Source: Mobula hypostoma (Eukaryota). Taken from it: a DNA stretch of 64,000 bases. This document shows, piece after piece, positions 1-49,508 of this stretch; the first letter of the stretch is position 1; each line of letters begins with the position of its first letter. The stretch lies in the NCBI RefSeq assembly GCF_963921235.1, contig NC_086097.1, positions 171,556,001 through 171,620,000 on the forward strand, read 5' to 3'. A program made the position numbers and the translations under genes. Under the pieces are notes generated by a model, which was not told the DNA's origin, searched no databases, and saw only the letters and a list, made by a program, of their open reading frames with translations.

Positions 1-243
1 AAGGGATAAAGGTGAAATATTTAAGTGGAACCCGAGGGGGGACTTCATCACTCAGAGAGTGTTGTGTGTGTAGAATGGGCTGTGAGCAGAAGTGGTGGAT
101 GTGAGTTCGATTGCAACATTTAAGAGAAGTTTGAATAAGTACATGGGTGGGAGTGGTATGAAGGGTCAAGGCAGAACAACAGTTCAACATGGACCAGATG
201 GGCTGAAGGGCATGTTTCCTTGCTGTAGTGCTCTATGACTCTA
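1..243 (+). mobile_element. CR1 LINE 3' end fragment
   Basis: Degenerate 'FFTQRVV..WN' coding tail followed by the 'gggctgaagggc..tgtttcc..gctgta..ctctatgactcta' 3' UTR shared with other CR1 copies in the window. Confidence 0.75.
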
Positions 244-420
244 AACAATCTGCTGGTGGAACTCTTAGGATGAGCAGCGCCTGTTGGGGGAGGGTGGAAT
301 TTTTGACATTTTCCTGCATTAGCACTCAGAGTGGGGAGCGGTTTTGCCCTAAAGTGTCAACAATTATTTTCCTTCTGCAGATATTGCTCTACCTACTGAG
401 TTAGTCCCAGCAGATTGTTT
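243..420. mobile_element. Penelope-derived palindromic short element
   Basis: Perfect 14-bp inverted repeat aaacaatctgctgg (243-256) / ccagcagattgttt (407-420) plus an inner imperfect IR; same family as 35823-36050. Confidence 0.65.
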
Positions 421-1440
421 GTTGCATTATCAAGTGGAGATGGAACTAAGGAACAGGGCAGTGGTCGGTTGAGTTAATGTGTCCAAACACGCTCTGTGGA
501 GCAGCTGTGAATAAAACAAAGACGTATCTTTGATTATGATCTGTTGAATGGTGGAAATTCAAAGCAGCAGGGGCCATTTGGACATGGGTGACAAAGTCAC
601 CTGGGGAAACTGCTGATGCGTCTCGTTCTGCGGCTCACCTTTGCAGCCCTGTATATCATACCATTTCAAATAATCAGCGGTTGTGAGGATTGACAGTGGA
701 GAAGGTGAGATGGAAGTTTTGACTCTTAGTGCATGGATATAGACCACTGATTTCCAGACAAAAGCCTCCAGACTCCTTTGATGATGCTTTCAGCTCTGTG
801 TCAGGGCTTCATCCATCTCCTAAGCCCCTGTAGAATCTCATCCATGCATAGCGCAAATATAATTATGCTGCAGAGCCCTGACTCTTGAAATCCATGCATA
901 ATTCTTGGGACCAGACAGATTAAATGTCGGCATTGAAATCACCAATTTATACAGTGATCTGTATGTAAGACAGAAACATACATGCAGAGGCTGTAACGAC
1001 ATTAAATCTAATTTCCATCAAGTGAGAGTATATTGGATTTTAAATCCTTACCAAATTATAAAAAAAGGTCTTGTCAGAAGAAGTGAGGAGCCTATAATGG
1101 AAAATGTTAATCCCTCTTCCCATTTAACCTCCTGAAAACCATGGTACTGTTTCAAATAGAAATAGGAATACAAAGCAGTTGGATTTTGATTTATTCAGAG
1201 AATATACAGTGGATACTGAGAGGGAGAACCCAATCTCTCTGATTCTGTATTAATACTGTTCTTTACTCACAGAAGGCTCTTTGAATTTTTTTTTTCTCTG
1301 TTGGACATTTTATCAATAACAAGGGCAGTGGCTTAAAAAGGACTGTGAGCACAATGTCTTTTACAGAGATATTCTGTAAAAAGGAATGGCTGTTATCCAG
1401 AAACTTCCATTCAGATTATAAAATAGGAGATACAAATGCA

Positions 1441-2017
1441 TTCAGCTTTCGTCACCCTGCCATAGAAAAGATGTTACAGAACTAGAAAGGCCGCAGAAAA
1501 AGAATTTAGAAGAATGTTGCCTGGACTTAAGGGCCTGAGTCAGAGAGAGAGGCTGTACAGGCAAGGGCATTTGTTCTTAAAGCATAAGAGAACGAAATAT
1601 CTAATGAAGATGTGTAAAATTGTGTGGGGTATAGATAAAGTGAATACACTCAGTCTTTTTCCCAGGGTTGGGGATTTAGGAACATAAGAGTAAAGGTTTA
1701 AGGTGAAAGGGAGAACATTTAATAAGACCCTGAGGAGAATTTTTTACTTGGAAGATGGTGTGTATATGGAATGAACTGTGGAAGGAAGTGGCTGAGGCTG
1801 GTGTAATGACAAGTTTTAAAAGACAAATACAGGGTTAGAAAAGTTTAGAGTAGGGGTTCCCAACCTTTTTATGCCATGGATCCCCACCATTAACCAAGGG
1901 TTCCGTGGACCCATGGTTCAGACAGATCTGGGCCAAATGCTGGCTTGGATGGACATCTTGGTAGGCTTGTATGAGTTGGATTGAAGGTCTTGTTTCTGTG
2001 CTTTATAACTATGACTC
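1441..2017 (+). mobile_element. Old CR1 3' fragment
   Basis: Degenerate homology to the RT C-terminus and 3' UTR of the younger CR1 copies. Confidence 0.7.
1851..1920. mobile_element. hAT/Charlie-type MITE fragment inserted in CR1
   Basis: Starts taggggttcccaaccttttt, resembling the TIRs of the hAT at 52007-53151; right TIR decayed. Confidence 0.5.
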
Positions 2018-2180
2018 AATATAGAAGGGATGGTGGAATGAAGGTTGCAAATTGTCATTTCCCACTGCACTTTTGATGACAGGTATTTGAGTGCTGTTAT
2101 GTTACTGGCTGTTAATTTAGTGACCTAGACTGAGAATGTGTGTTCCAGTTTAAGTGTAGTTAATTCAATAATTAAATCAC

Positions 2181-2540
2181 CTTATAGAAGTTTATAAGAT
2201 TATGTGAGGCTCAGATAGGATAGAGAATCTGAATCTTTTACCCTAGAGTAAAAATTTCAAATACTAGAAAACATGCATTTAAGGTGAGAGGAGGAGTGGT
2301 GGAGGGGTTGAGTTTAAAGGCGATATGAGATCAAAGATTCTTTTTAACACAGAGATCAGAGGGTGCCCAGGCAGCCCACTAGGGTTGTAGTGGAAGTGTA
2401 TATGATAGTGGAAGTAAAGAGGCTGGATTGGAAGGATATTGATCATGTGAATGCAGAAGTGATCTGGATTAATTTGACATTATATTCTGCACAAACATCA
2501 TGGGCTAAGGTGCCTATTCAATGCTGCATTGCTCTATGCA
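2181..2540 (+). mobile_element. Old CR1 3' fragment
   Basis: 'LIEVYKIM.G.DR' remnant plus CR1-type 3' UTR. Confidence 0.65.
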
Positions 2541-4159
2541 GTAAACTCTGGAAATCTAAAGCTAATATTAGAAATGGTGACACTAAACTATGGAATTACA
2601 TATATGGAAAATCCATCGGATTCACTAATGCATCTTTTGCGAAGGATATCTTCCTGGAGCTGGTTTCTCGAAACTGTAGCTTCATGTTGATTTTTGCACG
2701 CTGGGTGAAGTGACTCCACAAACTGATTAGAGATGAGCAATGATCGTTGGACTGTAACCGCAAGAAAATAGCAACAAAATTGAACACCCCACCTACCTCA
2801 GGCATTCTCTTTTCTCCTCCCATCAGAAAAACAGTATGCAAGACAAGGTTTCTGTTGTATCTCATGTGACAATAAACCAATTTACCAACTTGCTCATCCT
2901 ATCAGTAGATAAGGCTTTTTAAAACAATTGCTACTTAGAAAATGTGACAAACCTCTTCTTGATTGTAACTGTAACTGAAAGGTTTGATACAGGATTCCAC
3001 ATTGCTTTGAGTTTAGGAATATCTGAGGCGATCTAGCATTACCTTGCAAGGAATGAGGTATAATCATCAATAACCAAATCTAGGAGGCACAGACCCATGG
3101 GCTGATCTGCACCAGAGTTTTTAGAGATGCCTGCAATAAATGTCAGTGTTTTTTCAAAGCCTGTTTTGCTTTTAAATGCCGAAGTCCTGATGGTCATCTG
3201 AAGACCTTGGATGCCCAACTCACCCTCAGCAACCCCTGAACAGCTGCTTCTAATGTTCTCTCACCCAACTCTACAATTGTTCGAAAGAAGTCTCACGCAA
3301 GTGCACGCTGTTGATAAGAAATGCCAGTTCTCTTCATCCATTGCCCCCTACCCCCCACTCTGGTGGAGATCCAGTCTGAAGGATTGAAGGCCTGTGATGC
3401 ATTGAGATCTATTATCCTAGACCAAATTCTCCTCCCTGTAGTTCAGTCTCCCAACCTTCATCACAGTGTCCTGTATTCCAGCTTCTATGCAGACACAGTT
3501 CAAGCAGGTTTACTCTGTATTTCTCATTTCCCAGTAGATACCCATTCCTCTGGAAGCAGCAAGAAGAACAACTTGCATTCAGTATCTAAACTATGAACAA
3601 TCACAGTAAAGGTAGTGCTACTGCCTTACATTTGCAGTCACTGAAGATGTCTGAGTGTATGCTTGTGCAGAATTCCTTGGTTCGTGGCAGGGAGTGTTGC
3701 TGGTAAATTCTAGAGGATCTTGAGTTCATAAACAGAGAAACTGAGTATACAGGCAGGTTAGATATGTTAAGTCTTTACAAAACACTGGTTCGGCCATAAT
3801 TCCAACTGCAAGGGTTTCTTCTGTGTTCGCCAGTCTCCTCCCACATTCCAAAGGCCTGCTGGTTATTACTTTAAGTTACCTGTTAGGGGCAGGTGATTTT
3901 TGAATCATCAGGGAGCTCATAGGTACGTCAGATGATCTTAGGGACATCACTGATTATTTCGTTCACACCTGCTTTTTATTTATTTTCAGTTCGATCTGAT
4001 ATGCGTGTGCTTCTTATGATATTGCTCTGTTGCTACATCATGTGAAGCCTCATCTTTCAATGCCTTTGGTACAGTGACACAGCTACCAGGGTGCCTCCTG
4101 GCAGTGCCAGTAACGTAGGTTCAATCCTGTGCTTGAGTGCTGTTCATGTGGAATTTGGC

Positions 4160-4545
4160 TCACTTGTCTTCATTGGTCAGGGCATTGAGTACAGGAGTTG
4201 AGACATCATGTAGAAAATGTACAAACTGTTGTCTAGACCACAGTACTTCATTACTCCTCTTTTTCACTGCTTAGTTGTATTTTGTAACTTATGGTAACTT
4301 ACAAGAAAGATTTGGAACAGAGCTGAGGAACAATATTTTCACACAGAGGGTGGTGGGTATGTGGAATAAGCTGCCAGAAGAAGTGGTAGAGGTGGATACA
4401 ATTACAATGTTTTAAGGACACTTGGAAAGGTATATGGATTGAGGGATATGGGACAAATGCAGGCAACTGGACCTACCTCAGGTAGACATTGCCAGTGGCA
4501 TGCATGAATTGTGCCGGAAGGCCTTTATCTGCGCCCTATGAATCC
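4160..4545 (+). mobile_element. CR1 fragments
   Basis: 'FIGQGIEYRS..M' and 'FFTQRVVGMWNKLPEEVV' remnants. Confidence 0.65.
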
Positions 4546-4559
4546 TTGCACACCTTCCA

Positions 4560-4870
4560 TAAGACCATGAAATATTGGAGCAGAATTAGCCCATTTGGCC
4601 CATTGACTCTGCTCCGCCATTTCATCACGGCTGATCCATTTTCCCTCTCAGCCCCAGTCTCCTGTCTTCTCCCCACAAACCTTCATGCCCTGACTAATCA
4701 AACTCTACCTTAAATATACCCAATGACTTGGCCTCCACTGCCACCAGTGGCAAAGAATTCCACAAATTCACCACTCTCTGGCTAAAGAAATTCCTCATCT
4801 CCATTCTAAAAGGATGTCCCTCTATTCTGAGGCTGTGTCCCCTGGTCTTAGATTCCCCCACCATAGGAAA
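4560..4870 (-). mobile_element. CR1 3' fragment
   Basis: ORF 4694-4891 'FPMVGESKTRGHSLRIEGHPFRMEMRNFFSQRVVNLWNSLP'; tail cataagaccat. Confidence 0.85.
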
Positions 4871-4955
4871 TGGACAGAGAAGTTCCCACAACTGTGATTT
4901 ATCTCCAGGTGCTCAAGTTTCCTCCATTTAACGGAGATGTGCAGATTACCCGCAG

Positions 4956-5833
4956 GTTTGGGGTCTTGTGGATAGTGTGGAGGGCTGTCAGAGGTTACAG
5001 TGGGACATCTATAGGATGCAAAACTGGGCTGAGAAGTGGCAGATGGAGTTCAACCCAGACAAGTGTGAGCTGGTTCATTTTGGTAGGTCAACTATGGTGG
5101 CAGAATATGGTATTAATGGTAAGACTCTCGGCAGTGTAAAGGATCGGGGGATCTTGGGGTCCAAGTCCACAGGACACTCAAAGCTGCTGCGCAGGTTGAC
5201 TCTGTGGTTCAGAAGGCATACAGTGCATTGGCCTTCATCAATCGTGGGATTGAGTTTAAGAGCCGAAAGGTAATGTTACAGCTATATAGGACCCTGGTTA
5301 GATCCCACTTGGAGTACTGTGCTCAGTTCTGGTCGCCTCACCAGAAGTATGTGGAAACGATAGAAAGGGTGCATAGGAGACTTACAAGGATGTTGCCTGG
5401 ATTGGGGAGTATGCCTTATGAGAATAGGTTGAGTAAACTCGGCCTTTTTTCCTTGGAGCAACGGAAGATGAGAGGTGACCTGATAGAGGTGTATAAGATG
5501 ATGAAAGGCATTGATCATGTGGATTATCAAAGCCTTTTTCCCAAGGCTGAAATGGTTAACGTGAGAGGGCACAGTTTTAAGGTGCTTGGAAGCAGGGATA
5601 GAAGAGATGTCAGGAGTAAGTTTTTTACGCAGAGAGTGGTGAGTGCCGGCAACAGTGGTGGAGGCGGATATGATAGGGTCTTTTAAGAAGCTCCTGGATA
5701 GGTACATGGAGCTTGGAAAAATAAAGGGCTATGGGTAACCCTAGGTAATTTTTAAAGTAAGTACATATTTGGCACAGCATTGTGGGTCAAAGGGCCTGTA
5801 TTTTACTGTAGGTTTTCTATGTTTCTATGTTTT
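4956..5833 (+). mobile_element. 5'-truncated CR1 (RT C-terminus, frameshifted)
   Basis: 'WAEKWQMEFNPDKC', 'LYRTLVRSHLEYCAQFWSP', 'FFTQRVV'; (ttctatgt)n tail. Confidence 0.9.
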
Positions 5834-6699
5834 TATGGGTCAATTGGTGATTGTCAGTTGTTCCTCGAGTGTTGGCAAATCGTAGAAACAGGGAGAGTTA
5901 ATAAGAATGTGAGAATGAAATGGATTTAGTGTAACTTAGTGAAGACTCCAATGATTGAATGTCTTGTCTCCACATTGTACAATGTTACAGCTTCATCTTG
6001 GACTGGTTGCCATTTTTAGTCCCAATCCATCATGCACAGATCTTTCCATCTCCAATTATCTGCTAACACTGCTGCCTATTTACTTCTATGTTGAAAAATG
6101 CTGTCGATTTTTCCCTTGTGTTCCCCAAATGAGCAAAATTGCAACATCAGGTCAGAGATTATGTCAAGGGCAGTTTGCCAATCCTGATGACAGATCACCA
6201 GCCTGAAACATTAAACCTCTTTCCCTCTCTGCATTGTTTGTCTAGTATTTCCACCATCTCCTGCTTTGGTAAGGCAAGAATGTTTGTCTCTGAAAAGAGT
6301 CTAGACAGTTCAAACGAGTATTTCTCCTTCTGGGCTCAATAGGCAGGGTACAGTTGCCATAAATGCAATCAACCAGTTAGTCAAGAGCTCTCACAATGTC
6401 AGCAGATTAACCACAAATTTATTTCTCAAATGTTAGGATGGGATTGAATCTTATAAATCAATATACACATTCTCAGTGGAGAGAATCAAAAGAATGAATG
6501 CTGACAGGCAGTAATTTTTGATAAAGGATATAAGACCTCACAAGTAAAATCATCTCTTTCAGAATTGGTGATGTCTTTGTTACAATTTAAAAGCCACTGC
6601 TCTCACCAACTTGGTGATACCAGTGGATGGTGTGAGATGCCTTGCACTATTTTACATAAATTAAAGGTGTTATGTAAATATTAATGGTCATTAAATTGG

Positions 6700-7415
6700 C
6701 AAATTTGTTTATTATTGTCACATGTAATGAGGTACAGTGAAATGATCTCTGTGGTGTGCCAGCCATACAGATCATTTCATCACATCAGTGCATTGTGGTT
6801 GTACAGGGGAAAGGCAATAGAATAATGCAGAATAAAGTATTACTGTTACAGAAAAAGTGCAGTGAAGGCAAGCAATATGTTGCAAGGCCATGACAGCGTA
6901 GACTGTGAGATCAGGAATGTCAGACCTGCACATCTCCCAATCTCCACCCAATTTACAGAAGTCACCTGCCACTTGTTTCTAACTCATCACTTGCAACCTA
7001 TTTAAACACACCTCTCATCTACAGTCCTTGCTCACTCATTCTAGCCAATTTTCAGTTACTTCATTGGCCCAGCCTTCAGTTACCTTGTTGCCGTGTTGTG
7101 TTAAGTACCCATTCACTCTTGTCTTTGGACCCTCGTGGTTTGCTATTTTGCAGTTTATTATCAAAGCGATTGCTCACTGCTAAACCATCTTCAATATTCT
7201 GCGTTTGGGTCAAGACATCTTTACATTTCCTGACGGAGTCCATGTTAGTGTTCAAAAAGTATGTTCATTAGTCTTGTAGCAGTAGGATAGAGGCTGTCCT
7301 TGAGTTTAGTGGTAAATGCTTTCAGGGATTTGTATTTTGTGTGGAGTAGCAGGGAGAACATCAGAAGCATCTGGTCTGAGAGGAATTCTTATTTGGTTAG
7401 TTGTTTTATCGAGTC
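6700..7415 (-). mobile_element. Rex1/Babar-like 3' region interrupted by a putative solo LTR
   Basis: 'tttattattgtcacatgt...acagtgaaa' tail shared with many Rex1-like copies (23120, 24665, 53960). Confidence 0.55.
6911..7234 (+). mobile_element. Putative solo LTR (Gypsy-like)
   Basis: About 325-bp insert splitting the host repeat; terminal IR tcaggaatgt / acatttcctga; TATA-like tatttaaa; ctgcgtttgggtc near the 3' end; TSD unclear. Confidence 0.45.
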
Positions 7416-8379
7416 AGCAGAGTTGCTTCTGAAATTGAATCAAGCACAAATTTTGTGAAAATTAGACATGGCTAAATATACCCAAAACTTTCTGAGCTTC
7501 CGTTAGCTCCTGGGACTCTCAAATATAGGATCTAATATGTGCAGCTATTTGTTGAGAACATTTGGCTTGTGTAGCAGGGATGTTCACTGCACTAAATGAT
7601 TCCACTGCCTTGATTTTACATTCACACTGTTTCACTGTCAGGTTTTACTTATCTGCATTAATACACCTGCAGGAACATTCTGTTTTTAAAGTGAAATCTC
7701 AGCATTACATCATCACCTGACATCTGCGAAGGAAGAGCATAATACTGTTGTCATTTGTTAACAATTTAATGTAAAATGTTCTTGCTACTGTTGTGTACAT
7801 CTGAGTTAGACACAACTATAACATCCTGTAGATTCAGCACTTGCACTACCAGTAGAAGCCAAAGGAAGTGAACTTGACCAATATTTCAAAATGTATTTTA
7901 TTGGGATCTTGGCATCCTGTAAGGTCAATATTTATTGCTGAAGGACAAAGGCGTTTTGGCAAACTGGTTCCACAATTGGCTTGGAAGTGGGAGACAGTGG
8001 ATAATGTTTCTCTGACTGGAATTCTGTAATGAGTTGTGTACCTTGAGGACTGATGTTGGGAGTTTAGTTGTTTGTCATGTATGTCATTGACTTGGATGTC
8101 CTGATAGATGATGAAAGTAGCTTTCCTACTGCAGGGGCTTTCATAAGGAGGGGATATAATTTCAGAATAATGGATCAATATTTAAGACACATGAGGAGGA
8201 ATTTCTCCCCTCTGAACATCACAAACTTTTGCAATTCTCCAAACTGGAGTGCTGTGGAATATTCAGGGTTAAACCTACAGAAGGGTTAGGGATTGAAGAA
8301 GGTGGCGCTGTGACCAAGAGCAGGGTTTATTACTAATGTTATTGTCATAGTGCAATAAAAAAAAAGACATGCTTGTAGC

Positions 8380-8545
8380 AGCCAATTAGCCTATCAAAGT
8401 CAACCGACATGCCCTTGGGATGTAAAAAGAGACCCAAGTACCCACAGGTAACTGATGCAGTCAAAGGAAGAACATGTAAATGCCAGAGAAACAAGACCCA
8501 AGGTCTGCATTGAACCTGGATCTCTCGAGCTGTGAAGGGATAGCT
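8380..8545 (-). mobile_element. tRNA-derived SINE fragment (HE1-like)
   Basis: Reverse-strand homology to the SINE at 47828-48105, including B-box ggttcaatgc. Confidence 0.55.
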
Positions 8546-8627
8546 GTACAGAATGACTGCGGTAATTAGAATGGTCAGATGATACTGAGGTATCTCCTAC
8601 AGTGAAAAAATGCCCAAATCAGTCTCT

Positions 8628-8828
8628 TTCCTGTGAGGAGTTTGTATGTTCTCTTCGTGGCTGTGTGTGTTTCCTGCAGGTGCTCTGGTTTCCTCCCAGT
8701 TGTTCTGTTAATTGTTCATTGTAAATTGACCTGTGATTACGCTCGGATTAAAAACTGGGGATTAATGGGTGGCATGGCTTGAAGGGCCGGTAGGGCCTAC
8801 TCTGTGCTGTATCTCAATAAATAAATAA
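8628..8828 (+). mobile_element. SINE 3' half
   Basis: 'ggagtttgtatgttctc..gtgctctggtttcctccca..gggcctactc..(taaa)n', homologous to 47828-48105. Confidence 0.7.
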
Positions 8829-9344
8829 TTCTTGGATTATGCAGTAAGAACACATTGTTCTGAAACGTATTGCTTCTAAGAAAGCAGTTCTAAATAGCTC
8901 ACGAAATAATTAATTCCTTCCATTATTGTTAGTGTACCAACTTCTGAGGAATTTAAAGACAAAACACAACAATGGTAATTTGGGTTGAGGAAGCAGTGAT
9001 TTGATAGATACTGTAGGCAGATGGTTGGTGAAACTATTTCAACACTTGGCTTTGGTGCCCCCAATTTTGTGTTCCTGCCCCATTCCCATTAAAGCAGCGA
9101 AGCATGGAGTGCTCCCTGGTCAGAAGGGGTTTGATCCTAATCCACCTTGTTCTCTCTCAATGATCGTGATCCTCATCTCTCTACACCTCCATCAGCTCCT
9201 TTCCTTATTGAGAACACCAAAGGTTCAGTAGATTCTCTGACCCACTGAACTCTACTTTCTATGGACAATGCAAACAGTGCACAACAGACACCAGCATTTG
9301 AGTTGATCTGTTAGACTTGCTTTCCCAGGTTTAAGCTACCAACT

Positions 9345-9865
9345 GGAAGGAGTGCAGAAAAGGTCTACAGGGACATTGCCAGGATTAGAAGACCTAACTT
9401 ATTGGAAAAAGTCAATCAGGCTAAGTATTTATTCTTTGGTACATAGGAGAATGAAGGGTGGCCTTCCAGAAGTATTCAAAATTATTTGAGGAAATCCTGG
9501 ATGGCAACAGTCATTTCCTCAGGGTAGGGGAGTTCAAAACCTATGGGCATAGATTTAGAGTGAGAGTGGAAAGATTTAAAATTAACCTAAGGGGCAATAT
9601 TTTCATGCGGAGGGTGGTGTATATATGGAAATTCCTCAACACAAAATAATCTGCAGATGCTGGGGTCAAAGCAACACTCACAACACGCTGGAGGAACTCA
9701 GCAGGTCGGGCAGCATCCGTAGAAAAGATCAGTGGATGTTTCGGGCCGGAACCGTTCGTCAGGACGGAAATTCCTGATGGGTGCAGGTGCAATCATATCA
9801 TTTAAGAAGCTCTTAGATGGAGGAGCAGAGCCCAAAGGCATGTGGGCTGAACACTGGAAATTGTC
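9345..9865 (+). mobile_element. Old CR1 3' fragment
   Basis: 'GHRFRVRVERFKINLRGNIFMRRVVYIW' remnant; interrupted at 9637-9765. Confidence 0.65.
9637..9765 (-). mobile_element. Penelope-like terminal fragment with hammerhead-ribozyme core
   Basis: 129-bp insert flanked by exact 10-bp TSD ggaaattcct (9627-9636, 9766-9775); minus strand begins gtc-CTGACGA-acggttccggccc-GAAAC-atc. Confidence 0.75.
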
Positions 9866-18236: not shown

Positions 18237-18354
18237 GATTTCTTGGATGAAAGATATCCAAAGTTTTTGGGAATTATGCAGGAAGATGGAGTTTCTAGTT
18301 GAAGTTAGAGCAATCATGATCTTAATGGTTGGTAGAACTGGCTTAAGAAGTTTT

Positions 18355-21771: not shown

Positions 21772-21990
21772 GGACACACAAAGAACTGCAGATGTTGGAA
21801 GCTGGAGCAACACAGTGCCAGTGGAACTCAGTGAGTCCGGCAGCAAATGTGAAGGGAAATGGGCAGCTAATGTTGCGTGTCGAGACTCTTCATTTGGATC
21901 CTTTGTCAGTCCAGAGGACAGGCTTTGACCCAAAATGTTGACTATCCATTTCCTTCCACAGATGTCTAAACTGAGTTTCTTGAGGTCTTC
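21772..21990. mobile_element. Penelope-derived palindromic element
   Basis: Inverted arms (gtgaagggaaatgg / ccatttccttccac) with decayed hammerhead-like segments. Confidence 0.6.
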
Positions 21991-29591: not shown

Positions 29592-29919
29592 TATTCAGGT
29601 CACCTGAAACCAGAGAATACAGTATTATTGTTGTCAGCCTGTAGACTATTCCGGTCACCTAAAACTGGAGAATACAGTATTATTGCTGTCAGGCTGCAGA
29701 CTGTTCCGCTGACATGAAACTGGAGAATACGGTATTATTGCTGTCAGGGTGTAGACTATTAGGGTCACCTGAAACTGGAGAATACAATATTATTGCTGTC
29801 AGACTGCAGACTATTCGGGTCACCTGAAACCAGAGAATACCATATTATTGCTGGCAGACTGGAGACTATTTGGGTCACCTGAAACTGGAGAAGACTGGCA
29901 GGATGCAGACTATTCGGGT
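29592..29919. repeat. 55-bp minisatellite, about 6 units (plus one unit at 28136-28188)
   Basis: Units start at 29592, 29647, 29702, 29757, 29812 and 29867 (last is 44 bp); consensus tattcgggtcacctgaaactggagaatacagtattattgctgtcaggctgcagac. Confidence 0.95.
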
Positions 29920-34719: not shown

Positions 34720-35205
34720 GCTATAGCAAAGACATCACCAAGCTGGAAAGAATGCAAAGAAGATTTATGAAAATTCTGCCAGGTACAGAGGGCTGGAGTT
34801 ACAGGGAGAGGTTGTTCAGGCTAGCTCATTATTCTCTGTTATGTAGGAGAGTGAGGGTTGACTTTAGAGAAATGTTGAAAATTAAGGGACCAATAAGCTA
34901 GATGGTAGCTAGAAGGTAAGGGAGTCCAAAACTAGGGCTGTGGATTTAGGGCAAGAGAAGGAAAGATTTCAAAGGGATCTTAGGGTCAACTTTTTCACTC
35001 AGAGGGTAGTGAATGTATGGGATGAACTGCCAGAGGAAGTGGTTGAGGCAAGTATAATCATATCATTTAAGAAAGACCTGGTTAGACACATGAGGGGTGG
35101 GGGCTTGAGTTAGATGCAAGAAAATGGGACTAGCTGGGCAGACAACTTTGTCAGCTTGGACTGGTTGGGTCAAAGGGCCTGTAAATATGTTATATTAGTC
35201 TATGA
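34720..35205 (+). mobile_element. Old CR1 3' fragment
   Basis: 'KLERMQRRF', 'NFFTQRVVNVWDELPEEVV'. Confidence 0.7.
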
Positions 35206-35231
35206 CTGAGTCTAATTCGCCTTATGGTGTG

Positions 35232-35796: not shown

Positions 35797-35822
35797 TATG
35801 TAATAAGTCACCATTGCAATCT

Positions 35823-36050
35823 TCAAGATGCTGGAGGAACTCAACAGGTCAGGCAGTTCCTATGGAGGGAAATGGATAGTCAATGTTTCGGGTCACAACA
35901 CTTCATCTGCAGTCTTCCTCTCCAAACACAGGATCTTAACCTTGAAATGTCGACTGTCCAATCCCCTTCACAGATGCTGTCTGACCTGTGAACTCCTCCA
36001 GCATCTTGAGTCTTGCTCCAGATTCCAACATCTACATTCTCTTGTGCCTC
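35823..36050. mobile_element. Penelope-derived palindromic element
   Basis: Perfect 16-bp IR tcaagatgctggagga (35823) / tcctccagcatcttga (35994-36009), extending imperfectly about 60 bp; hammerhead-like remnants at the inner ends. Confidence 0.75.
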
Positions 36051-37110
36051 TGCTTACCATGAGGAGACTGGAGACTGGAGGATGTAGATGCTTGACTGAA
36101 GGCAGTTTCTCAGTCACTGCAATGCATCGATCCTTACAGGTTAGACAGTGAATTCATTAACAGAGAGCCCAGCCCAAACAACAGGCAGCTCATTGACAGA
36201 GGCAGGAGTCCTTGTCGAAGGTAGTTGATTCTGCACACATGAGAGCTTAAGCCCCATTCGTGCTGAGCTTGTCAAGGTTCTGCAACAAACAAATGATGCA
36301 GTGCAGAATTAAGCAACAAGAAAATCCTTCCTGGAACTTCCTCACATTTATTATGTAACTGTTTCCTTTTTACTTCAAGAGACTCCCTCATCACTGAAAA
36401 GGGTTGCATCACTTTTTAATGCACTGTCTTATTACTGCAAACCCTTATAAATTATAGACCAGTGGCAATCTTCCACCTTCTCTAAGGAACAAACTTGCAT
36501 CTCAATGATATTTTGTGACTTTATTGAACTTGAGGCTTTCCAAACCATCCTCATCTTTCGAAGTACTTTTGAGCTCCTACATACTATGGGGAAAATACCA
36601 GCTAGTAATCTGCATGGGCAGAAAAGAGAAGGTGATGAAATAATCCATGTACTATTAACGATAATTGAGAGATAATTAATGACAAGGATACCTTCAGCAT
36701 AGTGTTTCGATTGGGTTATTATTGGCACATGTACTGAGTTACAGTCAGAAGCTTTACTTTTGAGTGCCATCCTGAAGGATCATTCCATGCATAAGTACAC
36801 TGAGGCTGTAAAAGGACAACAGAATGCAGACTATAGTGTTACAGTTACAGAGAAGGCACAGTGCAGATAGCAAATAAATTCAAGGGCCATGGTGACATAG
36901 AGCGGGAGATGAAGGTCACAGCATTTAAAGTAGGAGAGGCCTGTTCAGGACATAACAATGGGATAGAAGCTGCCGTTGAGTCTGGTGGTATTGCTGTCAA
37001 GCATTTGGGTTTGCAGCCTGATGGAAGAGGGGAGATAAGGGGATGACTAGAATTGGGAGGTGGAGGGGTCCTTGATGTGATGGCTGTTTCACCAAGGCAG
37101 CGTGAAATCC

Positions 37111-37225
37111 GTCCTGATGAAGGGTCAGGGTCCAAAATGTCGGCTGTTTATTTCCAGCCACAAATGCTCCCTGACCTGCTGAATTCTTCCAGCATTTTGT
37201 GTGTGATGCTCAAGGTCTCCAGCAT
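37111..37225 (+). mobile_element. Penelope-like terminal fragment with decayed hammerhead core
   Basis: gtc-CTGATGA-agggtcagggtcc-AAAAT-GTC-ggctg then the family body ctgacctgctgaattcttccagca. Confidence 0.7.
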
Positions 37226-37483
37226 CAAAGCTCAAAGTAAATTTATTATCAAAGTACAAATATGTCGCTATATACAACAGAGAGATTCATTTTCTTATGG
37301 GAATACCCAATAAATTTAATAACCATAATAAAATCAATGAAAGATAACTAATGTACAAAAGACAAAAAACTGTGCAAATACAAAAAGAGAAAAAAGAAAT
37401 AATAATAATAATAAATACATAGGAGGTTGACAAGCAAAGAAAGTAGATCATGGAGTGATAAAGGGAAAACTTTTGACAGAATT

Positions 37484-38995: not shown

Positions 38996-39735
38996 CTCAA
39001 AGCTGGAGACCTCTTCCCAGAAATCGTGACAATTCAGGACCAGATGGTTAACACAAAACTTATCAAAAATATATAATAAGGGATCATCAAATTCAATATA
39101 ATAAACATAGAAAAGGCCAAGAGAAACCTGAAACAATCCAACACATTACAGGAACCTGCAGCACTTTAGCTCAATCTGATTACCTAGGCAGGCACAATCA
39201 AGTGGGAAAATCAGTCACCAAAATCTTTGCTCTAAAATACAAACTCATAAAAGGCAACATACCTTACTATAAATACAAGCATGATCCAGTTTTAGAGTTG
39301 GAATCCTTCAGATTATATAATGACTGATTCATTATTGTAGATAGGAGAATACATAATAATCATCCGGATATAATGTTACAGGATAAACAAGCAAGAACAA
39401 TTTACTTAATAGATATAACCATTCCAAACACACATAACATACAGAAATCAATAAATGAAAAATATCAGCAATATGCTGAATTAAAGGAGGAAATTGAAAG
39501 ACTATGGAACACAAACAGGCTATACATTATCTCAACAGATATTCCTACAACTGGTATCATCCCAAAGTCATTACACAATAGCACCAAACAATTAGGGCTA
39601 CAAAAATATTTCTGTAAGTCCCCAGAAAGCTACAATACTAAACGTCACGAGAATAGTCCAATAGTAATTGAGAAATGAATGTGCTTGGCTATGCCCTTCC
39701 CTCAGGTTTTACCAGCTTGAGCTGGAGAGAAAAAG
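38996..39735 (+). mobile_element. R4/Dong-clade non-LTR retrotransposon 3' fragment (restriction-like endonuclease)
   Basis: 'GDLFPE..IQDQ', 'ETIQHITGTC..LAQSDYLGRHNQV' (zinc knuckle + RHN), 'HPDIMLQDKQARTIYLIDITIP..EKYQQYAEL' (PD-D-K..Y RLE motif), 'TTGIIPKSL'. Confidence 0.85.
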
Positions 39736-40860: not shown

Positions 40861-41202
40861 AACCTCAATAAAGCAGAATCATTATTGGATGTGTAGAATA
40901 GGTTGCCTGGAATGGAGAGGCTCAAAGATGAGGGAAGACTGGTCTGTCTGGATTAGTTTGCCTTGGAATGGCTAAGGAGTTGATTGAAGTGCATGAAATT
41001 GTGCAAGGTCTAGATAGAGTAGACAGCATTAAACTTTTTACCACATCAGAGATATCTAAAATCAGAGATCATAGTTATAAGTCAAGGAGTAAAGGGACAT
41101 ATTTGGCATAATTTTGTGGGCCAAAGGGCCTGTATTGTGCTGTAGGTTTTCTATGTTTCTATGTTTCTATGTTTATGGAGAATGAAAGAAGAAAGTTTTC
41201 CC

Positions 41203-41316
41203 AAATACAAGAAAATCTGCTAATGCTGCAAATCCAAAGCAACACACACAAAATGCTGGAGGAACTCAGCAGTGTAGGCAGTGTCTATGGAAAAGAATAA
41301 ACAGTCAACATTTCAA
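41203..41316 (-). mobile_element. Penelope-like terminal fragment inside an old CR1 (about 40900-41535)
   Basis: aaagcaacacacacaaaatgctggaggaactcagcag..cagtcaacatttc, homologous to 9637-9765. Confidence 0.7.
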
Positions 41317-42825
41317 GATTTTTGCCTGGATGGTGGGGAGAGTCTGGTATGCAATGAATGAGTGGGTGGTGGAGGCAGAGATTCTCACAACATTTAGGAT
41401 ATATCAGGGCATACACTGGAATTGCCAAGACATAGAAGGCTACAGACCAAGCACTGGTGAACAGGATTTATTTCAATAATCGCTGCTGGTGTGAACAGTG
41501 TGGACAAAAGGCCTGCTTCTGTTTTGTATGACTCACAACTATGATTGTTCCTTTAGCTGAAAATCTCCTGGGATAACATAAGGCAAAGCATTATAAAAAT
41601 GTCATTTTTATACAAGTTGTTGTTTTTCTTTTACTGTTTTGTTTTGTTCACACCCATTGTGGTGTTCCATCAATACTTTCAATTACCTCTGAGAGTGCCC
41701 CCTGAAAATAAACATGTAGAAAGCAGTGTAGGTAAAAGTTAAGAGCTGTAATCAGCCTTCAGGCAGGAGAACCACATTTAATTTTATGTTGTGTTCTCAA
41801 AGGAACGAGGCACCAAGGAAACCCTCTTCCAGCAGAAGAGAAACAATCACAGTACCCAATTCAAGGCTGAATTGGTGAGAACAATATAATGGGGCTTATT
41901 ATACGATGTGATTTCAGATTGAACCAGGCAATGGAGTGCTAATCACCTAGAAAGCAGTTGAGTCATTTCATATTTATTGGTGATGCTTGGGAGAATTCAG
42001 CGGGCCCAGCTTAGTCTTTGCCCATTTGCAGTGAAGAAACTGAAGATGATAAAGGAAATACAAGTGTTCCACTTCATTTTGTGACGACTTAATGGAAAGT
42101 GACTCGGGTGATAAGAAAAATGCTATCTTGAATGTAGGAGAATGCATTTGCTTATCTGTCATTGTTTAGCCCAGTAAGAAACAGAATATTTGTGACAGGC
42201 CAATAGAATTAGCTGGTACATTGAAGCACAATGTGCTTCATTTTTCTCCTAACGTATCCCCATAATTAAACCTTTGAAAAATGCGCATTTGTCATTTTAT
42301 CATACTGTCATTGGGTATCCCGAAAGGACAGAACTTTGTTTCAGTTAGCAAGATTTCACCCTAATAGAGTTGAACTGTATGATAAATATCTCCTGTAAAT
42401 AAATGTTGTCATTTTAAAGGGATCTGCTGAGCTTATGAGGCCTTAGTGACATTTATAGAGAAAAGATAAAATCCATGCTAACAACTTTCAAAAACCTGTG
42501 GCATTCTACTCAATGAGAGCTGTCAAGTCAGGAATATAAGTGACCTGTTTGTTTTCGATTATTATTTGAATATTATTGTTCCAGTGTTTCCAATCAGCGT
42601 AAGAGATACAGTTGTTCAAAGCAGTTTGTGTATCTCGGTCATGCTTGATCCAAACTTCCACCCATTCCTCTTTCCACCTTTACTGTTTTTGGAATATTAT
42701 GAGTAATTTTCAGCCCCCGGTGGTGGGCCTAGATCGACCAGATGAAGTTCACTAGAATGATCTCAGGAATAAAAGGTTTAATACATTAGATTAGTTTAGA
42801 TTATGAGGACACTCAGTCCTTGTTT

Positions 42826-45431
42826 AGACCATAAGACCATAAGACCATAAGACAAAGGAGCAGAAGTCGGCCATTTGGCCCATCGAGTCTGCTCCACCAT
42901 TTTATCATGAGCTGATCCATTCTCCCACTTAGTCCCACTCCCCCGTCTTTTCACCATAACCTTTGATCCCCTGGCTACTCAGATACCTATCAATCGCTGC
43001 CTTAAATACACCCAATGACTTGGCCTCCACTGCTGCCCGTGGCAACAAATTCCATAGATTCACCACCTTATTTCTGTTCTAAATGGGCACCCTTCAATCC
43101 TTAAGTCATGTCTTCTCGTACTAGACTCCTCCATCATGGGAAACAACTTTGCCACATCCACCCTGTCCATGCCTTTCAACATTCGAAATGTTTCTATAAG
43201 GTCTCCCCTCATTCTTCGAAACTCCAAGGAATACAGTCCAAGAGCGGACAAACATTCCTCATATGTTAACCCTCTCATTCCCGGAATTATTCTAGTGAAT
43301 CTTCTCTGTACCCTCTCCAACGTCAGCACATCCTTTCTTAAATAAGGAGAACAAAACTGCCCACAGTACTCCAAGTGAGGTCTCACCAGCGCCTTATAGA
43401 GCCTCAACATCACATCCCTCCTCCTATACTCTATTCCTCTAGAAATGAATGCCAACATTGCATTCGCCTTCTTCACTACTGACTCAACCTGGAGGTTAAC
43501 CTTAAGGGTATTCTGTACAAGGACTCCCAACTCCCGCTGCATCTCAGAACTTTGAATTCTTTCCCCATTTAAATAATAGTCTGTCTGTTTATTACTTCTG
43601 CCAAAGTGCATAACCATACACTTTCCAACATTGTACTTCATTTGACACTTCTCTGCCTATTCTTCCAATCTATCCAAGTCTCTCTGCAGACTTTCTGTTT
43701 CCTCAGCACTACCAGCCCCTCCACCTATTTTCGTATCATCAGCAAACTTAGCCACAAAGCCATCTATTCCATAATCCAAATCGTTGATGTACAATGTAAA
43801 AAGAAGCGGCCCCAACACGGACCCTTGTTGAACACCACCGGTAACCGGCAGCCAACCAGAATAGGATCCCTTTATTCCCACTCTCTGTTTCCTGCCAATC
43901 AGCCAACGCTCTATCCACGTATGTAACTCTCCCGTAATTCCATGCACTTTTATCTTGTTAAGTAGCCTCATGTGTGGCACCTTGTCAAAGGCCTTCTGAA
44001 AATCCAAATATACAACATCCACTGCATCTCCCTTGTCTAGCCTACTGGTAATTTCCTCAAAAAATTGTAATAGGTTTGTCAGGCAGGATTTTCCTTTAAG
44101 GAATCCATGCTGAGTTCTGCCTATCTTGTCATATGCCTCCAGGTACTCTGTAACCTCATCCTTGACAATCGACTCCAACAACTTCCCAACCACCAATGTC
44201 AAGCTAACAGGTCTATAATTTCTTTTTTGCTTCCTTGCTCCCTTCTTAAATAGCGGAGTGATATTTGCAATCTTCCAGTCCTCCGGAACCATGCCAGAAT
44301 CTATCGACTTTTGAAAGATCATTGCTAATGCCTCCGCAATCTCCACAGCTACTTCCTTCAGAACACGCGGGTGCATTCCATCTGGTCCGGGAGATTTATC
44401 TACCTTAGGACTATTCAGTTTCCTGAGTCCTTTCTCTGTTGTAATTGTGACTGTGCACACTTCTCTTCCCTGCCACCTTTGAGTGTCCGGTATACTGCTG
44501 ATGTCTTCCTCAGTGAAGACTGATGCAAAATACTCATTCAGTCCCTCTGCCATCTCCTTATCTCCCATTACAATTTCTCCAGCATCATTTTCTATCAGTC
44601 TTATATCTACTCTCACCTGTCTTTTACTCTGTATATACTTGAAAATGCTTTTAGTATCCTCTTTGATATTATTTGCTAGCTTCCTTTCATAGTTAATCTT
44701 TTCTCTCTTGATGACCTTCTTAGTTCCCTTTTGTAAGGTTTTAAAAACTTCCCAATCCTCTGTCTTCCCATTAATTTTCGCTTCCTTGTATGCCCTCTCC
44801 TTTGCTTTAACTTTGGCTTTGACTTCTCTTGTCAACCACGGTTGCATCTTTTTTCCATCGAAAATTTCTTCTTTTCTGGAATATACCTCTTTTGCACCTT
44901 CCTCACTTCTCGCATAAACTCCAGCCACTGCTGCTCTGCCGTCTTTCCTGCCAGTGTCCCTTTCCAGTCAACTTTGGCCAGTTCCTCTCTCATGCCACTG
45001 TAATTTCCTTTACTCCACTGAAATACCGACACATCAGATTTTGGCTTCTCTTTTTCAAATGTCACAGTGAACTCAATCATGTTATGATCACTGCCTCCTA
45101 AGGGTTCCTTCACCTCAATCTCTCCAATCACCTCCGGTTCATTACACAATACCCAATCCAGTACAGCCGATCCCTTTGTGGGCTCAACAACAAGCTGTTC
45201 TAAAAAACTATCTCGCAGACATTCTACAAATTCTCTCTCTTGAGATCCAGTGCCGACCTGATTTTCCCAATCCACTCGCATGTTAAAATCCCCCACAATT
45301 ATCATAATATTGCCCTTCTGACAAGCCTTTTCTATTTCCTGTTGTAATTTGTAGTCCACATCCCTGCAGCTGTTTGGAGGCCTATAAATAACTGCCATCA
45401 GGGTCCTTTTACCCTTGCAATTTCTTAGCTC
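42826..45431 (-). mobile_element. Young 5'-truncated CR1 (EN C-half + RT), pseudogenised
   Basis: ORFs 44832-45455 ('IYRPP', 'GDFN', 'SDH'), 43657-44928 ('KFADDTK') and 43060-43641; frameshift and stops; (tcttatgg)n tail. Confidence 0.95.
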
Positions 45432-45539
45432 ATTTTGACATTTTTGCTTTGACATAATTTATATGTGGTTTCCAGCTTAATTTATTATTTATTACCACTC
45501 CTAAAAATTTCACTATGAAGGAAACAGATCCACCCACAT

Positions 45540-46075
45540 GAAAGCAGTGTACCATGGAGGAGATGGTGGCAGTATTATGAATACCAACTTATTTGTGCCT
45601 TCTAACCAGTTCTGTTTCTTCTCTGAAACACACGGGGAAGACTGCATCAACACACTTACTGCATGGTGGATGAACTCAGCGGATTGGGCAACATCTATGG
45701 AGGAAGATGTACAATTGGCATATTGGGCAAAGACCATTCTCCCCTCTCCCCCCTCTCCCCCCTTTCCCCCACTCTCCCCCCTCTCCCCTCCCCCTTTCAT
45801 CTACCCAGCCCAACCTCAACTGTGCTATCCTGCTGTTTTCAGACACTTGAATGGACTCGCGCTCTAAGGATGAATTCTTGATCTCCCAATCTGCCTCATC
45901 ATGTCCCGTGCATTTATTTGTCTTGCTGTGGTGTTTTTTCTGTAACTACATCATTTTTTTCCAATCTGTTTTTGCTACCACAAGATACTTATTTACATAG
46001 TGATCTACCTGGATGACATGCAGACAAGATCTTTTCATTTATCTCAGTACACATGACAATAATAAACCAACACCA
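45540..46075 (+). mobile_element. Rex1-like 3' fragment with C-rich low-complexity tract (about 45738-45795)
   Basis: Tail gtacacatgacaataataaac; degenerate coding remnants. Confidence 0.5.
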
Positions 46076-46623: not shown

Positions 46624-47228
46624 TATGGTTCCTTAAGGTTGTCATAGTTGGGGGGTGGAGGGGCCTTTGCATTAGTGGAGATGAACTTTCACTACCTATT
46701 TGATGCTCCCTATGGTGTGCATCTCAAATAGCCTCTGACAACCAAGTCCACCTCCTGGCTTAGCTACTTAGCCCGGTGGAACCATCTCTACTGACAGGAG
46801 AACAGGCGAAGGTTGGTTACAAATGCCTTAAAACCAGCCAATCCAGGCAGATGGAGCTTGCCAGCTGTGGTTGGTCGATCATCTTGGAGAAGGAAAGCTC
46901 TGATTTCAAATTTTCACTGCCTTGCGGCTACACCTACACATGGGGACGACTTCAGGAGTAAACCCTGAGGGAAAAATCCAGAGCTGGAGTCCCTAAGGCA
47001 GTCCTATGTTGAGTTCAATGCTGACTGGCAACTTCTTGACTGGTGCTAAAGTGTATTGGCCTCTGCCATTCGTTTGGAATCATTAGTTGTGTGGAGAGGG
47101 GGAGTCTGCTGCATGGGTCTTCATATTGTTCTTGCTCTTCATATTGGGCTACCCTGGCTTTTGTATCAACTACACAGATAGTTGGGGCGCAGTATCCATG
47201 GTCGACCCCAACCAGCGGAGGGTCTCTC
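46624..47228 (+). mobile_element. Non-autonomous retroposon, probably RTE-derived (5' UTR fused to 3' end)
   Basis: About 600-bp ORF-less insert splitting a Rex1-like tail; ggagaaggaaagctctgatttcaaa and terminal ggcgcagtatccatggtcgac..ggagg resemble RTE ends from memory only. Confidence 0.4.
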
Positions 47229-47827
47229 TATATGAAGTGAAATTCATTGTTCTGTGGCACCGGTATAGTGCAGAGATGAAATTACTATAAAGGTCAAAAT
47301 AAATAAATGAATTGTGCAAAATATGATTAATGAGCTTGTGTCTATGAGTTCATAGTATGTTCAGTTATCTGATGGCAGAGGGGAAGACGCTGTTCCTGAA
47401 TCACTGAGTGTGATTCTTCATGCTTCTCTACCTCCTCCCTACTGTAATTTTGAACAGCTTCAATACTGATTCATGGAGCAAAACAGCACAGATAAAAGAC
47501 GCATCTAGTCCATGCCAGCTCAATCTTCTGCTTAGTTCCATTTACCTGCACCTGGACATTATCCCTCCAAATTCTTCTATCTATCCAAACTTCTCTGAGA
47601 TGTTACAGTTGAACCTGCATCCTGATAGCGAAGGAATTTCAGAGGCTCTGATTATTAGTGCTACTGGAAATCTGAGGACTGCTGTCATTGTACTTATGTT
47701 TAGATAGGGAGTAAGAGGTCCACTAAATAATAACAGACCATTTTGTTTAATTTTGATGACTGAAATATGATTGGAATCCATCGTAAATGACAGTGTAAGA
47801 CTTCACTTAGAAAGGTGCTGATTAATT

Positions 47828-48105
47828 GGTAGTATAGTGGTTAGCACAAAGCTTTATTGTACAGGTGATGTGGGTTCAATTCCTGTCGCTGCCTGTAAGG
47901 AGTTTGTACGTTCTCCCCGTGACCACATGGGTCTCCTCCAGGTACCCTGGTTTCCTCCCACATTCCAAAGGTATACTGGTTGGTAGGTTAATTAGTCATT
48001 GTAAATTGTCCCATGATTAGGCTAGGTTTAGATTGGGAGATTGAAGGACCAGAAGGGCCTACTCCAAGCTGAATCTCAAATAAATAAATAAATAAATAAA
48101 TAAAT
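47828..48105 (+). mobile_element. Near-complete tRNA-derived SINE (HE1-like)
   Basis: A-box tagtatagtggt, B-box gggttcaattcc, CR1-like 3' segment gaagggcct.., (taaa)n tail. Confidence 0.8.
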
Positions 48106-49249
48106 GGTGATAGTCTGCATGGATTTCCAAAGGAAATGGCATATCTGACAAAAGAATAATTTCTTCGAGGAAGTGAAGTTGAGGATTGTTGATGGCAGTG
48201 TGTTTGGTAGAAACATAGGGCATGAGTTGGCCATTTTCTCCTCCCAGCCTTTTCCTCCACTTAATATGATCTTGAGTGATCATCAATCACAATCTATCCT
48301 CCTACTTTCTCCACATCTCCTCGGTGTGGCTTCAGCTGGAAATTTATCATTTCCTTTTCAAACAAAGCTTGATATGTTTTTCATAAATATGCTCCAGTCT
48401 ACATGGATTTCATTAAGATTTGCAACAAGGTCTCCCTCAACAGGCTGGTCAATGGAGTTCCCATAGGATTCATGGGAGGATAGCAAATTGGATTCAAGGG
48501 AGAGTGACAAATTGGATCCAGTGCAACTAGAATAGCTATGGAGGGAATTGAATAGATGAGACTTCAGGCTGAGGCCCTTCATCAGGATTTTGTTCCAGCA
48601 AGCAACAGGTAATGATTCACAGGTATCTCTATAACTCGAAGGGTGTAAGCCAGTTCCATTTAAACTCTCAAATCAGCCACAAATCTTTTCTGCACTAATT
48701 TCTTTCTGTGTAATTGACATAGCATCTTGTTGTAGGCTATGATTTGGGTCTGGGGTACTAACTGGTGTCACCTTGCTTTCTCAAGTTTCACCAGCATCTG
48801 GAGTACATCAGCAATAGTTGAATGGACCAGTGATAGACTGAACAAACACTAGCCTGCTTGTATCTGGCATGTCAGTAACGCGTTCTTAACTGAGTAGAAA
48901 GGGATTGATCTCTCCTGAAACCAATGCAGAAGTTCTTAGCAGATAGTGCAAGGTGACACTGAGGGATGGCTGCACTGTTCGATTAAACTGCAGTTCTCAT
49001 TCTCAGCTAGACACCGCAGATCCATGACATTATGAGCTCCAAAATCTAGCTCTGAATTAACATCATGAAACAAATTAACTGGTCATCATCATGTCACAGG
49101 TACTTGCCATGCACACCTTGACCATTGTGTTTCCTGCATTAACACAAATAAAATTTGAGAAATACTCAAATGACTGCAAATCATTTTGGGACAGGTCAAA
49201 TTGTGAGTGACATTATAAAAACCGAAGTCTTTCTTCTTGCTAATGTAAG

Positions 49250-49508
49250 TGACTGCAGATGCTGGATTCTGGAGTAACAAATATCTTGGTCGGAGTGTGG
49301 TTGAAGAGCCAAAGGATGGAAGAAAGACGGGGATCAGTGCAAGAACATTTCACAGAACTCTGTCAAACAGGAGGACAACTTCTTCAAAGATGGCAGACCT
49401 TGAAAAGACTTCTGATTCCGAGTTTCCATCCAAAATGTTCATAATTCTTTCACTCACACAGACACTGCTCTATCTGCTGAGTTCCTCCAGCAGACTGTTT
49501 GTTACTCT
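49250..49508. mobile_element. Old Penelope-derived palindromic element
   Basis: ctgcagatgctgga..gagtaacaaa / ctgctgagttcctccagcag..tttgttactc. Confidence 0.55.

Follow-up and report, generated by a model that had tools for sequence, protein, structure and literature searches.

In this study, we found that a 64,000-nt stretch of the genome of the ray Mobula hypostoma (assembly GCF_963921235.1, contig NC_086097.1, positions 171,556,001 to 171,620,000; hereafter the window, numbered from its first letter) holds 21 arms of a dispersed repeat that begins with the remains of a minimal type I hammerhead ribozyme. These arms are very probably the 5'-truncated 3' ends, namely the pseudo-long terminal repeat plus an optional tail, of an endonuclease-bearing Penelope-like element (PLE), copied from RNA that was likely uncleaved. 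The assignment was made because variable 5' ends, inverted partners, a one-sided tail of about 30 nt and a 10-bp duplication represent the published insertion signature of PLEs, the head-to-head pairing of arms together with the optional tail being the strongest evidence. From this, we infer a link between the family in the window and an autonomous parent element.

The first-pass annotation of the window, made from its letters alone, had pointed to six hammerhead-like motifs and to about 10 copies in 64 kb. All six motifs were found within 1-2 bases of the places given there, with boxes starting at 6184(+) (CTGATGA), 9762(-) (CTGACGA), near 35909(-) (CAGATGA), 35944(+) (GAAAT), 37114(+) (CTGATGA) and 48585(-) (CTGATGA); each lies at the 5' end of a longer repeat, which measures about 100-145 nt. 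Thirteen further copies were detected in the window at E<0.005 with a nucleotide profile built from four seed copies, whereas the best match in the reversed window, which served as the control, had an E of 8. The iterated profile gave 21 arms at E<0.01 among 26 rows, against a best E of 4.7 in the reversed window; 19 of these arms were part of its training set, those at 6172-6270 and 62366-62415 being the two that were not. The arms are spread over 16 loci at a density of one per 3 kb, and, with a tail-only piece added (22 arms in total), they span 2,285 bases or 3.6% of the window. Thus, the abundance of the family was borne out, but the profile count was about twice the number supposed. A search with the Rfam models, of the kind that had been proposed as a check, resulted in no hammerhead match in the window even at E<=5 (six weak, unrelated matches); we ascribe this null result to the poor reach of such models where a minimal motif has decayed and do not count it against the hammerhead. 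The core block of the family had no matches in viral contigs, metagenome contigs or prokaryote genomes.

The arms and associated features, in which stem I, stem II and an ACGU palindrome are parts of the hammerhead, are as follows.

233-327, minus strand: left arm of pair A, decayed, no tail.
327-430, plus strand: right arm of pair A, decayed, no tail.
6172-6270, plus strand: weak solo arm (E 0.004) with both boxes (6184-6190 and 6205-6208), lacking stem II and palindrome.
9627-9636, plus strand: left copy of a perfect 10-bp target-site duplication.
9637-9765, minus strand: youngest solo arm (E 1e-28), with hammerhead (9765-9730), core block and tail; differences from the family majority at 9754 (stem II), 9737 (ACGU palindrome) and 9734 (stem I) disrupt these parts.
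9766-9775, plus strand: right copy of the 10-bp target-site duplication.
20608-20719, minus strand: old arm that seems to run upstream, past an inserted repeat, into pyrimidine-rich sequence at about 20925-21090.
20963-21088 and 21298-21429: inverted pyrimidine-rich pair (69%, E 4e-6).
21770-21908, minus strand: left arm of pair E, with tail.
21906-21990, plus strand: right arm of pair E, short, tail ambiguous.
22074-22182, minus strand: left arm of pair F, no tail.
22149-22286, plus strand: right arm of pair F, beginning inside stem II, tail present.
22851-22941, minus strand: left arm of pair G, hammerhead missing or unrecognisable, tail with a weak score.
22929-23029, plus strand: right arm of pair G, no tail.
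33776-33892, plus strand: old solo arm, no tail.
35807-35920, minus strand: left arm of pair I, holding the motif annotated at 35877-35910, no tail.
35921-36052, plus strand: right arm of pair I, holding the motif annotated at 35944-35956, tail present.
37102-37227, plus strand: solo arm from stem I (37111), GAAA changed to AAAA, tail shortened.
41201-41329, minus strand: solo arm from within stem II, tail present.
45628-45742, minus strand: decayed solo arm with part of the tail.
48519-48598, minus strand: short solo arm, CUGAUGA kept, second box decayed.
49247-49281, minus strand: tail-only piece (E 0.15, tail score 36) facing away from the next arm.
49400-49510, plus strand: arm without a tail.
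60645-60758, minus strand: solo arm with tail, without the 5' half of the hammerhead; about 25 nt resemble the upstream stretch (10 of 1,000 shuffles).
62300-62415, plus strand: weak arm at 62366-62415 (E 0.0016), preceded by a pyrimidine-rich stretch like that of the 20608 arm (13 of 1,000 shuffles).

Ten of the arms form five pairs with a gap of less than 40 bases, and all five pairs are head-to-head; the other eleven lie outside such pairs. The junctions differ from pair to pair, with gaps of -33 to +1 and arms beginning at different positions of the motif, indicating that the palindromes were made independently. The five paired units, of 180-250 bp, fold as long hairpins (z -2.1 to -11.8), that of pair I reaching -100 kcal/mol (z -9.4). 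A sixth, looser pair (49247-49281 and 49400-49510) has 119 unrelated bases between its members; this insert (49282-49400) has no match elsewhere in the window and may represent either a replaced arm or copied-in DNA. The inverted pair at 20963-21429 probably marks one more head-to-head insertion, here with longer upstream parts, that later repeats have since interrupted; its membership in the family we infer. At the other end, the 3' ends of the arms cluster near profile column 114 or 142-148. The tail of about 30 nt was present on one arm only in four of the six pairs (F, G, I and 49247/49400), on neither arm in pair A and ambiguously in pair E, with tailed arms scoring 25-42 and the 95th percentile of the background being 21. 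Neither the head-to-head pairing nor the optional tail had been part of the earlier reading. The 5' ends are variable, the arms starting at motif positions 0-27. As for target sites, the perfect 10-bp duplication flanking the solo arm 9637-9765 holds ATT. This arm sits inside an older CR1 piece, and its joined flanks align across the junction with another CR1 3' piece at 34943-35073 (70% over 131 columns), in support of an empty site. Another 10-bp direct repeat (22042-22051 and 22307-22316), lying 20-25 bases outside pair F, is a possible target duplication. A duplication score of 10 was reached by 2 of 17 candidates compared with 2 of 150 random intervals.

To compare the window copies with the family at large, public contigs from four runs were aligned at 80% likeness to 9600-9800, the youngest copy serving as the reference; the two DNA runs, each from a different organism, gave 22,288 and 26,184 contigs, and the other two, guessed to be RNA but possibly containing DNA, gave 4,232 and 1,430. 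The majority letter opposes the window copy at 9754 (99%, all four runs), restoring the first strand of stem II, and at 9737 (50-72%), restoring the ACGU palindrome, and the majority letters at 9734 (92-94%) and 9766 (98-100%) restore two pairs of stem I. The GAAACGUCGAC core recurs, with a second stem II loop, in the consensuses of loose-end contigs, which lie off the reference. The majority sequence has a stem I of five pairs (CAGUC with GACUG), a CUGAnGA box followed by one unpaired (bulged) A, a stem II of 4 bp (GGG/CCC and a U-G pair) with a tetraloop in the predicted fold, and a GAAA box; it is without helix III, in the place of which stands the self-complementary ACGU, and has a GUC site, after which the cut is predicted between 9735 and 9734. 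The by-eye consensus of the first-pass annotation was therefore matched by the majority letters in all four runs, except that stem I is 5 bp, not 3, and stem II is 4 bp. Its condition that a family-wide consensus might lack the core or the stem pairing is likewise countered by an indication, both being kept in the contig majority, and the ascription to the minimal type I design of PLEs was supported, as the family majority carries every mark of that design (PMC4209133).

A separate record agrees with these restorations. The translated youngest copy matched a COE3-like isoform of Mobula birostris (83% over 68% of 44 residues, E 2e-4; one of 28 candidates), and this record reads K, R and R where the window copy has N, H and P, which correspond to three restored codons. 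The C-terminal 30 residues of this predicted isoform are the translated repeat, in codons that fit an intact hammerhead, by exonisation or as a gene-model artefact.

The predicted cut site is crossed by 16 of the 21 arms when the anchor is required to be correctly placed and by 21 of 21 under permissive scoring, and none begins within 2 nt of the site; therefore, the templates were likely uncleaved RNA. Seven rows of joints among the contigs included two that leave an arm near the cut site, and these were rejected as signs of a cleaved template because they are ambiguous, the decayed core and the tail end sharing a 6-letter word. Four opposite-strand joints all lie in the 5' half of the repeat. 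A few joints of the type "goes back" show that some head-to-tail copies exist; they fall within window positions 9636-9717 and involve few contigs. The depth of the bin holding the hammerhead was 0.9% of that of the peak bin in the two guessed-RNA runs versus 2.7-3.2% in the DNA runs, from which no inference was drawn, as contig depth cannot rank parts; likewise, no place where many molecules begin or end was listed for the two guessed-RNA runs, contigs showing neither level nor ends.

In the window, the first box is kept in 4 of 21 arms, both boxes in 2 and the whole core in none, and no arm keeps the ACGU palindrome, where CA or TG is found in 14 of 19 anchored copies; none of the five motif folds of window copies forms a hammerhead. 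For the analysis of CpG decay, the arms were anchored on non-CpG letters only, by which 19 of the 21 were anchored, two being dropped for a low score, and three of the 19 were placed wrongly and kept in the count. CG, TG or CA stood at 40 of the 57 dinucleotides scored across three consensus CpG sites, compared with a background of 16%, and TG and CA were both present at each site. The window has 40% G+C and a CpG observed/expected ratio of 0.24. Thus, CpG decay, to which several deviations had been ascribed, explains most of them, and the expectation that most copies are inactive was supported; on sequence grounds, all copies in the window are likely inert.

The company in which this design occurs was seen in a metagenome collection, in which the pattern searched consisted of the two boxes and stem II, with stem I not being part of it. 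Matches, 123 in all, came from 10 of the 64 parts into which the collection is divided, and 122 loci were analyzed. Stem I of at least three contiguous pairs was present in 39 of 60 distinct flank sets, compared with a mean of 11 and a maximum of 20 in 2,000 shuffles of the partners, each position showing four to six types of pair; motif position 17 was not G in 58 of 60. Judging by these flanks, stem I covariation holds for the same pattern in the families of other animals. In locus L005, two outward-facing motifs enclose a frame of 595 residues that matches RVT_1 (E 5e-5) and GIY-YIG (E 0.001) and has 2,266 homologues of the same make-up, the sense motif being located 133 nt behind the frame end; in L049, the sense motif is located 87 nt behind a GIY-YIG frame. 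These loci belong to the families of other animals and show the company of the design, not the parent of the family in the window. There were eight divergent motif pairs in the 122 loci. Head-to-head pairs 20-287 bases apart are present in L010, L036, L043, L068, L094, L098 and L109, with a layout as in the window but in unrelated families. L005:1061-3608 is a near-complete PLE-like unit and adjoins a piece of DNA polymerase B (L005:4108-4740, E 6e-8).

Several observations weigh against the origin of the arms from a hammerhead-bearing PLE. With respect to insertion, 15 of the 17 candidates have no convincing target duplication, the window contains no partial tandem in head-to-tail orientation, and 12 of the 21 arms start, under permissive scoring, within the first 7 nt of the motif, which could mean a non-autonomous element with a fixed start. 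No remnant of a PLE reverse transcriptase (RT) or GIY-YIG domain was detected in the window with a profile made from 120 PLE-like proteins, the top score of 0.4 bits lying under that of the reversed control; the missing open reading frame (ORF) is expected if only element ends are present. A frame at 21100-21300(-), likened by eye to a PLE C-terminus, was dropped, as the profile gave no support. With respect to the hammerhead, the two loop variants observed have identical stems, so that there is no covariation inside the family, and position 9731 in stem I reads another letter in 19-42% of the depth, with no partner change listed. The ViennaRNA program gave, for the majority sequence, an alternative monomer fold of -14.5 kcal/mol compared with -10.5 kcal/mol for the hammerhead fold, the lower-energy fold pairing the first box with the cut site, and the two-strand minimum is other than the ACGU-bridged dimer. 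Furthermore, both Pfam matches of L005 are below the curated cut-offs, and the window profile matches only the hammerhead columns of the metagenome loci, with a best E of 0.011.

The clustered starts could be accounted for by a self-standing non-autonomous mini-element, either an arm or a palindrome, that has its own master copies, starts at stem I and is mobilised in trans by PLE protein. The clean copy at 9637-9765, which begins exactly at the stem I GUC and has a target duplication, would agree with such an element, as would the absence of any ORF remnant in 64 kb beside 21 arms, and non-autonomous PLE derivatives have been described (PMC8557442, in Chlamys; bioRxiv 10.64898/2026.07.22.740005). 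However, the palindromes were made independently, and no promoter or tRNA head was found. The contigs match the reference up to 9769, with another letter at 9766, so that the family continues upstream of the GUC. In addition, three arms have related pyrimidine-rich upstream sequence, which argues modestly in the same direction (10 and 13 of 1,000 shuffles reach the scores; the other comparisons of upstream stretches between arms were not significant). A mini-element is therefore possible but unlikely. In the first-pass annotation, the family had been described as a non-autonomous ribozyme-bearing PLE derivative; the PLE origin is indirectly supported by the insertion anatomy, whereas a master copy of its own is not, a truncated longer PLE fitting at least as well.

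A non-LTR retrozyme, in which tandem units are cut by the hammerhead and the monomers circularise and reinsert, would also present a type I hammerhead inside a short non-coding repeat; such elements were reported from the only chondrichthyan whose genome was sampled (bioRxiv 10.64898/2026.07.22.740005), and the few head-to-tail contig joints would fit them. But there is no tandem array of the unit in the window (none of 19 Tandem Repeats Finder rows lies on an arm), close neighbours are head-to-head, and arms begin upstream of the cut, not at it. The motif in the window is also without helix III, whereas retrozymes consist of tandem units with mostly canonical hammerheads (PMC7229834). This origin is very improbable and largely refuted for the copies in the window. 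A DNA-type fold-back element or miniature inverted-repeat transposable element, in which terminal inverted repeats would show a hammerhead-like pattern by chance, is scarcely credible: although five palindromic units of 180-250 bp do fold as hairpins, 11 of the 21 arms are unpaired, paired arms are unequal with a one-sided tail, the duplication seen is 10 bp, and the motif has every listed mark of the PLE hammerheads in a pattern of which stem I covaries in other animals. Just as hard to credit is the 3' end of a short or long interspersed element (SINE or LINE) with a chance or by-eye hammerhead pattern, for which speak the missing Rfam match, the failure of any single window copy to fold as a hammerhead and the abundance nearby of LINE pieces that we take to be CR1-type; the majority of 22,288 contigs and the separate protein record restore boxes, stems and palindrome, which makes a chance pattern unlikely, ARAGORN found no tRNA genes in the window (decayed heads could escape), and the arms begin at the hammerhead and are without the 8-bp tandem tails of the local LINE pieces.

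Taken together with the published biochemistry, an origin from a truncated PLE suggests the following route. The RT/GIY-YIG ribonucleoprotein would nick AT-rich DNA, and reverse transcription would be primed at one of two internal sites near the 3' repeat of the RNA, resulting in an arm with or without the tail of about 30 nt. Most copying would end within the hammerhead or shortly before it, 100-145 nt on, and the priming of both strands, or a restart of the enzyme, would join two arms at their 5' ends. In the parent element, by analogy with known PLEs, two hammerheads may pair via ACGU as helix III and may cut after GUC only as a dimer, perhaps with the aid of protein. A head-to-head pair cannot supply this dimer, because one arm is antisense and pairs with the other; a transcript across the pair would be a long hairpin holding only one sense hammerhead. 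It may even be that the hammerhead acts here as a structure, not as a knife, in that the closed stem I hairpin stalls the PLE RT on uncleaved RNA and triggers the restart that gives the inverted arm, thereby setting the size and shape of the palindrome, but we offer this as a speculative and rather doubtful idea.

The window is otherwise rich in LINE pieces, many of them short and with 8-bp tandem tails. Long, nearly open LINE frames are present at 16930-18273(-), 28110-29189(+) and 43657-45458(-), with RVT_1 matches at E 1e-23 to 1e-30, and an endonuclease domain is located at 44835-45458 within the last of them; we take all three frames to be CR1-type. A piece of RT from a different LINE family, presumably Rex1/Babar-like, is located at 19244-19935(-) (RVT_1, E 2e-7). 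Directly behind a LINE piece, there is a tandem repeat at 29592-29892 (55-bp unit, 5.5 copies, 85% matches, no indels). The frames at 30688-31251(+) and 52048-52320(+), which had no Pfam match at E 0.01, look to us like pieces of hAT/Buster-type transposase. Two consecutive frames at 39052-39678(+), the second without a Pfam match, would in our estimation resemble the C-terminal restriction-like endonuclease end of an R2/R4-type retroelement, and a 113-residue frame at 61381-61722(+), also without a Pfam match, looks like a Myb/SANT-like transposon protein.

The identification of these repeats has mainly annotation value, about 3.6% of the window being PLE-end debris unflagged by Rfam. If the density is typical, an extrapolation from this one window gives about 300,000 arms per gigabase, and such numbers would be enough to map truncation points, tail classes and junctions, which could test the formation of inverted insertions by PLEs and in vivo cutting by their hammerheads. 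In introns and untranslated regions, the palindromes would give rise to much double-stranded RNA, and at least one copy appears to have entered a predicted ray protein isoform. If the stalling of the RT at stem I were true, the hammerhead would, by the same extrapolation from one window, shape several hundred thousand palindromes per gigabase, and the minimal hammerhead would in rays be among the most repeated catalytic-RNA motifs of a vertebrate genome, with the arms as a natural library of truncation points.

No description of the family in cartilaginous fishes was found in the partial collection of literature searched; no such fish is named in the portion of PMC4209133 consulted, and the repeat is probably catalogued in Repbase or Dfam. 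The animal non-LTR retrozymes are similar to the family in being short, non-coding type I hammerhead repeats that are related to PLEs and present in a chondrichthyan, and they differ in their head-to-tail tandem arrangement, whereas the copies in the window are dispersed or head-to-head and without helix III (PMC7229834; bioRxiv 10.64898/2026.07.22.740005). The minimal hammerheads of PLEs are marked by a base between positions 9 and 10.1, G10.1-C11.1, a palindromic 15.2-16.2 and a short helix I; the family shares with them the CUGAnGA and GAAA boxes, the lack of helix III, the unpaired base before stem II and a helix I of 4-5 bp, and differs in its helix II, of 4 bp with a tetraloop compared with 7-8 bp in the Schistosoma families (PMC4209133). 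Solo motifs from truncated PLEs and opposite-strand pairs 100-700 bp apart have been noted (Cervera and De la Pena 2014, PMC4209133), and the window likewise holds mostly solo motifs and some close opposite-strand pairs. Rates of dimer cleavage are reported to be low (PMC4209133; review PMC6765202), and one of nine Xenopus dimers tested cleaved (bioRxiv 10.64898/2026.07.22.740005).

In PLE insertions, 5' truncation is strong, a truncated copy in inverse orientation often adjoins the 5' end, and one end bears a tail of 30-40 bp (Craig et al. 2021, PMC8557442). The family is like the endonuclease-positive PLEs described there (Penelope/Poseidon, Neptune and Nematis) in its 5' truncation, inverted copy, tail and hammerhead in the terminal repeat; unlike them, it has usually short arms, which result in a palindrome of 180-250 bp centred on the hammerheads, and neither an ORF nor a partial tandem is present in the window. 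The tail, described as unique to PLEs, arises from two internal RT start sites; the RNA inserted in vitro is mainly uncleaved, and the Anolis hammerhead cuts only with protein (Frangieh et al. 2024, PMC11167929). The family therefore resembles Poseidon of Anolis carolinensis in its optional tail, in its likely uncleaved RNA and in AT-rich sites, the duplication in the window holding ATT, whereas the Poseidon ORF starts inside the hammerhead (PMC11167929) and in L005 and L049 the same pattern is located behind the ORF end. The motif, its place in the ends of PLEs, the opposite-strand pairs and the tail are thus already in print, and the family is notable mainly for its abundance, the density being, if the decayed copies in the window are counted, far above that of the 4,000-9,000 intact motifs of the coelacanth and Xenopus (PMC4209133).

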